Positions 42,788 to 42,934 of a DNA stretch of 64,000 nt are shown piece after piece. A program made the translations under genes and the position numbers. The DNA comes from Candidatus Latescibacterota bacterium (GTDB lineage: Bacteria > Latescibacterota > UBA2968 > UBA8231), in the NCBI GenBank assembly GCA_965261395.1, contig OZ253462.1, forward strand, positions 6,464,001 through 6,528,000, given 5' to 3'. The notes beneath the pieces were generated by a model. The model was given only the letters and a program-made list of their open reading frames with translations, was not told where the DNA came from and did not search any database. Numbering within the stretch: position 1 is the stretch's first letter; every line of letters starts with the position of its first letter.

Positions 42788-42934
42788 TTATTTGATCGTG
42801 ATCTCTATACAGCAGCAGCAGCAACAGCAACAGCTAGCTAAAACAGGCTTGTCAGAAGAACTGCCGTCAGAAGAATCGCCTTTTGCCGGCGACATATAGC
42901 CATCAAAGGGCTTCGATACGATTTTGAGCTTCAT
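42788..42934 (-). CDS. RiPP precursor peptide 2 (48 aa, Cys8): MKLKIVSKPFDGYMSPAKGDSSDGSSSDKPVLASCCCCCCCCIEITIK
   Basis: manual translation; RBS AAGGAG; leader nearly identical to precursor 1; below the ORF-track length cut-off. Confidence 0.9.
   Translation of the reverse strand: MKLKIVSKPFDGYMSPAKGDSSDGSSSDKPVLASCCCCCCCCIEITIK

Follow-up and report, generated by a model that had tools for sequence, protein, structure and literature searches.

The head of a biosynthetic gene cluster in a Candidatus Latescibacterota bacterium raises the question of whether a short open reading frame (ORF) next to a Cys-rich precursor gene is itself a precursor gene or only the trace of a DNA duplication. The ORF lies at 42788..42934 on the minus strand of a 64-kb stretch of contig OZ253462.1; this stretch is the whole of the DNA analysed and is called the window here. 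Our answer is that the ORF is in all likelihood a functional gene for a second ribosomal precursor (type B) in a thiazole/oxazole-modified peptide pathway, whose product would be translated and then modified. Genome annotation can miss the precursor gene that defines the product of a cluster, and once precursor B is counted, twice as many products are predicted for this one. Precursor B, its partner precursor A, and their Shine-Dalgarno sequences are as follows.

42788..42934, minus strand: precursor B, 48 aa, ATG start, stop codon included (ORF list and sequence)
42944..42949, minus strand: Shine-Dalgarno sequence AAGGAG of precursor B, 9 nt before its ATG
43112..43264, minus strand: precursor A, 50 aa (ORF list, sequence, and second match in the bacterium's own genome)
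43273..43279, minus strand: Shine-Dalgarno sequence AAGGAGG of precursor A, read from the sequence

A preliminary description of this DNA had proposed a 48-residue frame with the leader and Cys block of precursor A and a different tail. The frame is present in the ORF list as a minus-strand, ATG-start frame, and the shared leader, the DKPV motif, the eight Cys residues, and the divergent tails can all be seen in both translations. Precursor B has the sequence MKLKIVSKPFDGYMSPAKGDSSDGSSSDKPVLASCCCCCCCCIEITIK. Precursor A, which is located 330 nt upstream in the direction of transcription and has its ATG within a 75-aa TTG-start ORF (43112..43339), has the sequence MKLRIVSKPFDSYMSPAKGGSSDKESPDKPVASSCCCCCCCCAGTTSFFN. 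Both peptides consist of a 17-aa conserved leader, a Ser/Asp-rich linker, exactly eight consecutive Cys, and a tail. Fifteen of the first 17 residues are identical (the differences are K4R and G12S), and residue 17 is followed by KG in each. The tails, IEITIK in B and AGTTSFFN in A, are unrelated. The Cys codons are mixed in B (three TGT and five TGC) and all eight are TGC in A, as had been described. The bacterium's own genome, a single contig of 6.55 Mb, contains just these two precursor copies; B matches the family profile there with an E-value of 1.4e-18 and is included in the precursor alignment (A2).

Contigs from four of four further public runs carry precursor B without difference over 42596..42914 or more. 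The assemblies of these runs (window 42560..43480) break at the Cys-codon tracts, and three of the four show a 526-nt skip from 42687 to 43214. Variant contigs in the same runs have the same leader and 5' leader region, followed by unlike sequence at loose ends, which suggests co-existing strains with differing precursor cores.

Seven genes, all on the same strand, lie directly downstream of the precursors.

41426..42544, minus strand: SagC-like protein with an N-terminal strand/helix domain (residues ~16-100) and an E1/ThiF-like domain (PF00899, TIGR03603, and structural model)
40593..41396, minus strand: degenerate SagB-like protein, probably non-catalytic to judge by its sequence (TIGR03605 below cut-off)
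39639..40589, minus strand: SagB-family flavin mononucleotide (FMN) dehydrogenase, azoline to azole (TIGR03605 above cut-off)
38828..39601, minus strand: ABC-2 type permease (PF01061, 88.6 bits)
37355..38818, minus strand: YcaO cyclodehydratase of the SagD type (PF02624, TIGR03604)
36611..37339, minus strand: CPBP (Rce1-like) intramembrane protease, a candidate leader peptidase or immunity protein (PF02517, 67.3 bits)
34935..36623, minus strand: ATP-binding cassette (ABC) transporter ATPase with a C-terminal tetratricopeptide repeat (TPR) extension (PF00005, 102.9 bits, plus TPR matches)

The locus thus holds a YcaO protein, an E1-like partner with an N-terminal domain, a SagB dehydrogenase, and adjacent precursors rich in Cys, Ser, and Thr, the set by which linear azole-containing peptide (LAP) clusters, or thiazole/oxazole-modified microcin (TOMM) clusters, are recognised. 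Enzyme families, fold matches, and the names of homologues together identify it, as far as sequence can, as a TOMM cluster of the streptolysin S type, headed by two precursor genes. The YcaO protein scores 151 bits against PF02624 (cut-off 25.7, E 6.3e-44) and 205.9 bits against TIGR03604, just below the cut-off of 219.25; its relatives in the PDB are LynD, MusD, and TruD. It ends in PGPFPFP, and a Pro-rich C-terminal end is typical of azoline-forming YcaO proteins. The SagB dehydrogenase reaches 149.7 bits against TIGR03605 (cut-off 78.4) and is related to the PDB entry 3eo7, CyaGox, and McbC. A SagH-specific model gave 25.4 bits in the window cluster against a cut-off of 450.

The SagC-like protein is the presumed leader-binding partner of the YcaO enzyme. 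It scores 40 bits against PF00899 (cut-off 28.1) and 49.6 bits against TIGR03603, under the cut-off of 187.65. Homologues in other phyla are 35-57% identical, and their source names are "TOMM precursor leader peptide-binding protein" or "SagC family component". An AlphaFold2 model built from 53 aligned homologues (predicted local distance difference test score 87.8) has N-terminal strands at 16-47 and three helices at 54-94, followed by an E1-like fold. Its best structural matches are MccB, PaaA, TruD, and LynD, over ~360 of 372 columns (E 9.5e-21 to 1.4e-14) at a sequence identity of 12-19%. All four of these proteins bear an N-terminal peptide-recognition domain, and MccB is also the solved sequence relative of the E1-like part.

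The degenerate SagB-like protein scores 23.4 bits against TIGR03605, which is under the cut-off, and has no Pfam match. It aligns weakly (E 0.056) with the N-terminal half of the two-domain protein 3eo7, and the SagB dehydrogenase aligns with the C-terminal half. As they match opposite halves, the pair may, on this weak evidence, be a split two-domain dehydrogenase. BLASTP of one against the other detected no significant similarity. The dehydrogenase contains a W-K-Y-G stretch, and W-R-Y occurs at a possibly equivalent place in the degenerate protein.

The same cassette occurs in related bacteria. Of 30 other genomes of the genus, 20 yielded the SagC-like protein (77-91% identity); it was not found in any of 30 genomes from other genera, of which six belong to the same family and 24 to three further families of the class. 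As the genomes compared are closely related, counts across them overstate their independence. In all 21 genomes, the DNA upstream of each SagC-like copy contains one to three small ORFs with the same leader, 35 genes altogether. A profile of these 35 precursors found matches in 21 of 31 genomes of the genus, the same 21 that have the SagC-like gene, and in none of 45 genomes from 17 other genera of the family. All of the profile matches listed are within ~1.6 kb upstream of the SagC-like gene of their own genome.

Wider searches recovered few additional members. A scan of 185,579 species genomes for the leader pattern yielded 19 loci, titled Candidatus Latescibacterota or Latescibacteria or, in three cases, Gemmatimonadota or Gemmatimonadetes metagenome-assembled genomes (MAGs). 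In one of these 19, the divergent cluster L043, the enzymes are 44-66% identical (tblastn) and there is a single precursor with a nearly unchanged leader. A metagenome scan produced one true relative, L053; L054 was rejected as a chance match in a membrane protein. A word-index protein search with the 50-aa precursor returned no match, and a profile search of 1.84 billion representative proteins later found eight relatives at E <= 1e-10, all with the same leader, so the earlier result reflects a limit of the method. Three of the eight (P0107-P0109) are mis-called, with long false N-termini that run through the 5' leader region.

The core is the hypervariable part. Among its forms are runs of four to nine Cys, alternations of Cys, His, and Asn, and Cys runs with poly-Gly in front or behind, and precursors differ in how many Cys, His, Asn, Ser, and Gly residues they have and how these are spaced, as well as in a tail of 5-9 residues. 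Weak core similarity to the streptolysin S family model TIGR03602 was detected in 16 of the 35 precursors (E <= 10; best E 6.5e-4). Precursor B belongs to this small family of fixed leaders and highly variable Cys-rich cores. A fixed leader combined with free poly-Cys cores suggests an enzyme set that tolerates many substrates. The leader also provides a simple search pattern for new members and a handle for heterologous production.

Seven leader residues (M1, K2, L3, S7, F10, P16, and A17) are invariant in the 35 genes. Residue 11 is variable (D in 15, N in 13, T in three, E in two, and S in two), residue 12 is G in 31 of 35, residue 13 is Y in 31 and H in four, and either M (30 genes) or I (five) stands at residue 14. 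The preliminary description had suggested FDxYM as the recognition motif; F10, Y13, and M14 bear this out and D11 does not, and the conserved face is F-x-G-Y-(M/I). A comparable motif, FXXXB (B being a branched-chain residue), is reported in PMC2676033 to be needed for the binding of SagA by SagC, on the basis of alanine scanning, peptide arrays, and surface plasmon resonance, and to correspond to F8 and L12 of McbA. F10 and residue 14 resemble FXXXB only loosely, as Met is not branched. By analogy, the leader may bind the SagC-like protein via F-x-G-Y-(M/I). Complex prediction of the SagC-like protein (alignment A3) with the precursor (alignment A2) gave scores of 0.24 and 0.01 against a mark of 0.32, which speak neither for nor against binding.

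Whether B itself has been kept can be judged from its tail. All six genomes with cores of at least eight consecutive Cys carry both A-type tails (AGTTSFFN, AVTSSF, AITVY), in the gene distal to the SagC-like gene, and B-type tails (IEITIK, VDITFN, ATIEIT, ATIEIN), in the gene proximal to it. The order is the same in all six, and three of them have a third gene between. The preliminary description had allowed for related clusters without an equivalent ORF; instead, counterparts of B with the related tails VDITFN, ATIEIT, and ATIEIN adjoin the SagC-like gene in five other genomes (L007, L017, L018, L021, L023). Among L017, L018, and L023, the B-type linkers have 86-95% identity. The linker of the window B is 53% identical to that of the L007 B gene at the amino acid level (80% in DNA), and the latter is 29% identical to that of the window A (65% in DNA), within a cross-type range of 29-47% aa between the window and L007. 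Since type-B tails and linkers are conserved between genomes, the type-B gene is older than the split of these six genomes and has been kept. Linkers of A and B within the window are 65% identical in amino acids and 82% in DNA, a similarity that suggests some exchange between the paralogues.

The preliminary description had further argued from the Cys codons for selection on the peptide rather than a simple DNA repeat. This argument is weak, and the second part of it has to be given up, because A and B are a tandem repeat in the DNA. The unit of ~325 nt includes ~170 nt of non-coding upstream sequence, and the alignment has a mean column identity of 82% over 418 columns. As the duplication spans non-coding DNA too, the similarity of A and B within the window alone is no proof of selection on the peptide. 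Support for such selection comes from the other genomes. Across the 35 genes in 21 genomes, variable sites in the 17 leader codons number 7, 5, and 16 at codon positions 1, 2, and 3, and this mostly third-position variation marks a sequence that is translated and under purifying selection. Cys runs are retained while their codons swap (178 TGC and 69 TGT), and no frame-breaking indel occurs in any of the 35 genes. AAGGAGG or a close variant (AAAGGAG in L013) precedes the precursor ATG among the rows listed. With its own Shine-Dalgarno sequence, an intact frame, and this conserved leader, B agrees with the proposal of a genuine second precursor.

Several points weigh against this interpretation. 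Within the window, the similarity of A and B is explained by the tandem DNA duplication, non-coding sequence included. When codon differences were counted in the 29 distinct leader DNAs, 1282 were synonymous and 1259 non-synonymous, a crude count for which no expectation was computed; the non-synonymous differences are concentrated at codons 4, 8, 9, and 11. None of the 35 precursors reaches the TIGR03602 cut-off of 35 bits, and B scores 9.2 bits; the SagC and SagD family models also score under their curated cut-offs. The promoter-like element duplicated before B, described below, is without its -24 GG, and B may depend on read-through from A. Finally, a single precursor is present in 10 of the 21 genomes of the genus and in L043, so a second precursor is not needed by the pathway.

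The alternatives differ in what they ask of the pair. Two congeners or a two-component product had both been envisaged in the preliminary description, and an obligate two-component product, with A and B both modified and active only together as in two-peptide bacteriocins, is a real but rather unlikely possibility. Such a pair would account for the joint presence of both tail types, conserved by type and in the same order, in all six genomes with eight or more consecutive Cys, and five other genomes (L012, L019, L020, L024, L025) also have two precursors each. However, the six are close kin and not independent, so the co-occurrence of A and B cannot separate independent congeners from an obligate pair; the same enzyme set stands beside one precursor in the single-precursor genomes and L043, three of the 21 genomes have three precursors, and family searches of the window found no dedicated second modification or immunity gene beside the pair. 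That B is a tandem copy of recent origin with no function of its own, intact because it is young, and silent or decaying, is improbable. The whole unit was duplicated together with its promoter-like element and 5' untranslated region (UTR), the -24 GG of the copy has mutated to AG, and the window A and B linkers are as alike as each is to its L007 counterpart, all of which would fit such a copy; yet the B tail is unrelated to that of A and related to SagC-proximal precursors in five other genomes, its frame, start codon, and Shine-Dalgarno sequence are intact and its sequence is identical in the four further runs, and all eight Cys are kept despite three TGC/TGT codon changes.

Two further explanations would detach the ORF from the pathway or from translation. 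Eight free thiols would bind soft metals, and B could be an unmodified Cys-rich peptide, metal- or redox-binding for example, that merely lies beside TOMM genes. The 21 genomes with the peptide family are exactly those with the SagC-like gene; this strict co-occurrence, a leader-plus-core layout with an F-x-x-x-(M/I) motif as in the SagA and McbA leaders, and the combination of fixed leader and freely varying cores, which is the pattern expected of enzyme-guided substrates, make this very improbable. Least credible of all is that no peptide is conserved here but RNA or DNA, such as a regulatory repeat or the (UGC)n tract. The flanking non-coding element (90% mean column identity) is more conserved than the genes, and its CUG/CAG-rich arms could pair with a (UGC)n tract; against this stand the third-position bias and the lack of frame-breaking indels in the genes, the 1-nt indels that the non-coding element does have, and the Shine-Dalgarno sequence before each gene among the rows listed.

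If B is a functional second precursor, as we consider probable, a route can be proposed by analogy with SagBCD and McbBCD. The SagC-like protein would capture the F10-x-G-Y-(M/I) face of the leader with its N-terminal domain. ATP-dependent cyclodehydration of Cys residues to thiazolines by the YcaO enzyme would follow, and the SagB flavoprotein would oxidise these to thiazoles. The CPBP protease or another peptidase would then cut off the leader, and the ABC transporter would export the product. A and B would thereby yield two products from one enzyme set, each with up to eight contiguous thiazoles and differing in their short C-terminal tails. By comparison with known systems, the product would most likely be a membrane-active or antibacterial peptide. 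The prediction is of peptides that carry as many as eight thiazoles in a row, made in a candidate phylum that, to our knowledge, has no cultured members.

The non-coding DNA of the locus contains a promoter-like element and several hairpins.

43420..43435, minus strand: sigma-54-type -24/-12 element TGGCATGTTTTTCGCT, its GG and GC spaced as in the consensus, located 172 nt upstream of the precursor A ATG
43322..43381, minus strand: conserved hairpin of the predicted precursor A 5' UTR (CAGCAG ... CTGCTG around a second inverted repeat; RNAalifold, 21 sequences)
43088..43103, minus strand: degenerate duplicate of the sigma-54-type element, TTAGCACGTATTTAGC, before precursor B, with the -24 GG changed to AG
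42989..43048, minus strand: duplicate 5' UTR hairpin before precursor B, partly overlapping a Cys-rich small ORF (42931..43032)
42647..42684, minus strand: stem-loop of 15-17 pairs in the interval from the last precursor to the SagC-like gene (fold; no U tract after it)

The element TGGCATGTTTTTCGCT carries the GG and GC of the sigma-54 -24/-12 consensus. It is the sole match in the window to the relaxed pattern TGGCAYGNNNNTNGCW, for which 0.13 matches are expected, and an element of this type is found by regular expression 162-173 nt before the first precursor ATG in 20 of 21 genomes, the 21st having a variant. The bacterium's own genome has rpoN (435.5 bits, above cut-off). At every locus, a non-coding element of 185 nt stands before the first precursor, with a mean column identity of 90% in 21 sequences; it starts with TTGGCA(C/T)GTTTTTCGC and continues with a palindrome and a ~60-nt hairpin, in which no compensatory pairs were seen by RNAalifold of the 21 sequences. 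The precursor genes probably form their own transcription unit, which would start at the promoter-like element before A. As the -24 GG is lost before B, B is likely to be co-transcribed with A.

Stem-loops after the structural genes of peptides that are made on the ribosome and modified after translation (RiPPs) usually set the ratio of precursor to enzyme transcripts. The stem-loop at 42647..42684 was recovered by regular expression in 20 of 22 loci, with 95.8% of cells paired and changes on both sides in two pairs. Its effect would be to limit the transcript, or to stabilise it, ahead of the enzyme genes. A comparison of 42300..43900 with Rfam was without a match. In one related locus (L010, genome G009), an insertion lies between this stem-loop and the SagC-like gene and places the precursor ~1.3 kb from the enzymes; it includes a 380-aa ORF (261..1403) that resembles a DDE transposase.

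Small Cys-rich ORFs (MEANRAAGCC...) also lie inside the conserved 5' leader region, at 42931..43032 and ~43269..43340 on the minus strand. The first of these and its 23-codon twin before A were considered as a third precursor or a Cys-sensing attenuator and rejected, as the frame is not conserved. Read from an invariant ATG, the upstream ORF has at least four Cys in nine of 21 sequences and zero to two in the other 12, its Cys count differing across the sequences through 1-nt indels. The upstream Cys codons are a by-product of the 3' arm of the conserved hairpin.

Two sets of neighbouring genes flank the cluster.

43841..47562, plus strand: B and A subunits (610 and 629 aa) of a type IIA topoisomerase, next to the cluster and divergent from it
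31884..34928, minus strand: 748-aa outer-membrane protein that resembles TonB-dependent receptors and has a CarboxypepD_reg domain, and 258-aa TPR protein, after the ABC ATPase

Adjacency of topoisomerase genes to an azole-peptide cluster is of note because microcin B17 targets gyrase. The pair is syntenic in 18 of 19 related loci. Apart from this pair, the bacterium's genome has a single A subunit, on an 842-aa open frame at a different site that is presumably gyrA, and with just two A subunits in total the idea of an extra resistant target copy is not supported. It is probably a housekeeping topoisomerase IV. The receptor-like and TPR proteins are retained in two of three congeners that lack the azole cluster (L058 and L060, not L059) and are therefore probably not specific to the azole cassette.

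In these three congeners, the sequence beside the topoisomerase gene matches window 43381..43832, the part with the sigma-54-like element, by blastn, at 81% in L060 (genome G006) and 68-69% in L058 (G030) and L059 (G026). A sigma-54-like motif, TTGGCACGTTTTTCGC, is readable in L060. At the other end, a 74-aa remnant of the ABC ATPase C-terminus is present in L058 and L060, not in L059. Between the two ends is ~8 kb of other DNA, annotated in L060 only (570..8500), where it encodes transglutaminase/GT4-like, GT2-TPR, C39 peptidase domain, CPBP protease, and Yip1 proteins. To judge by these sequences, it looks like a cassette exchange under one promoter. A bolder reading, which we regard as speculative and unlikely to hold as a whole, is that the genus keeps, at one fixed position in the chromosome beside its topoisomerase IV genes, a natural leader-guided library of linear peptides with up to eight or nine contiguous thiazoles, that the pair of A and B with eight Cys each makes a two-component membrane-active agent, and that the sigma-54 promoter and structured 5' leader, from which expression would proceed, are both kept where another cassette replaces the azole cassette.

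We know of no characterised counterpart of peptides with eight or nine contiguous thiazoles. The literature searched contains no description of this cluster or precursor family, and no paper found there brings a streptolysin S-like cluster together with Latescibacter*, YcaO with eight C in a row, or sigma-54 with LAPs. Two sponge-microbiome papers, in the portions available, mention Latescibacterota and YcaO or LAP in general terms only. Table S3 of PMC11832590 gives LAP = 1, in a row without description, for one of 24 Latescibacterota MAG rows, and FAM_00447 of that source falls under terpenes. Traits that are unusual here are the eight to nine contiguous Cys, the very short fixed leader, the hypervariable cores, the sigma-54-type promoter, and the host from a candidate phylum.

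Among known systems, the streptolysin S clusters are the nearest. They share a gene set of upstream precursor(s), SagC, SagB, the SagD YcaO, a CPBP protease (sagE), and an ABC exporter, and a leader with an F-x-x-x-hydrophobic motif that is followed by contiguous heterocyclisable Cys. The gene order of the present cluster is different, with the permease placed after SagB and ahead of YcaO. The cluster also has a degenerate SagB-like gene in addition, a TPR domain on the ABC ATPase, and one to three precursors per locus with hypervariable cores and short tails. Its precursors fall outside the TIGR03602 cut-off and its SagC and SagD scores are under the cut-offs; its host is an uncultured member of the Latescibacterota and not a Firmicute.

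Microcin B17 (McbA, McbBCD) has the same trio of E1-like protein, YcaO, and dehydrogenase, and McbC is among the PDB relatives of the SagB protein. The McbA core is Gly-Ser-Cys-rich, whereas the cores here are Cys runs. Family searches of the window proteins showed no pentapeptide-repeat immunity gene like that of microcin B17. The McbA leader is recognised through F8 and L12, according to PMC2676033.

The SagC-like model matches MccB and PaaA, which combine a RiPP recognition element (RRE) with an E1-like domain, and the N-terminal halves of TruD and LynD over nearly its full length. MccB and PaaA are active adenylating enzymes. In cyanobactins and prochlorosins, one enzyme set serves several precursors with near-identical leaders and divergent cores. 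They differ from the present cluster in enzymology and leader family, and they resemble it in using one enzyme set with near-identical leaders and cores that diverge both between and within genomes.

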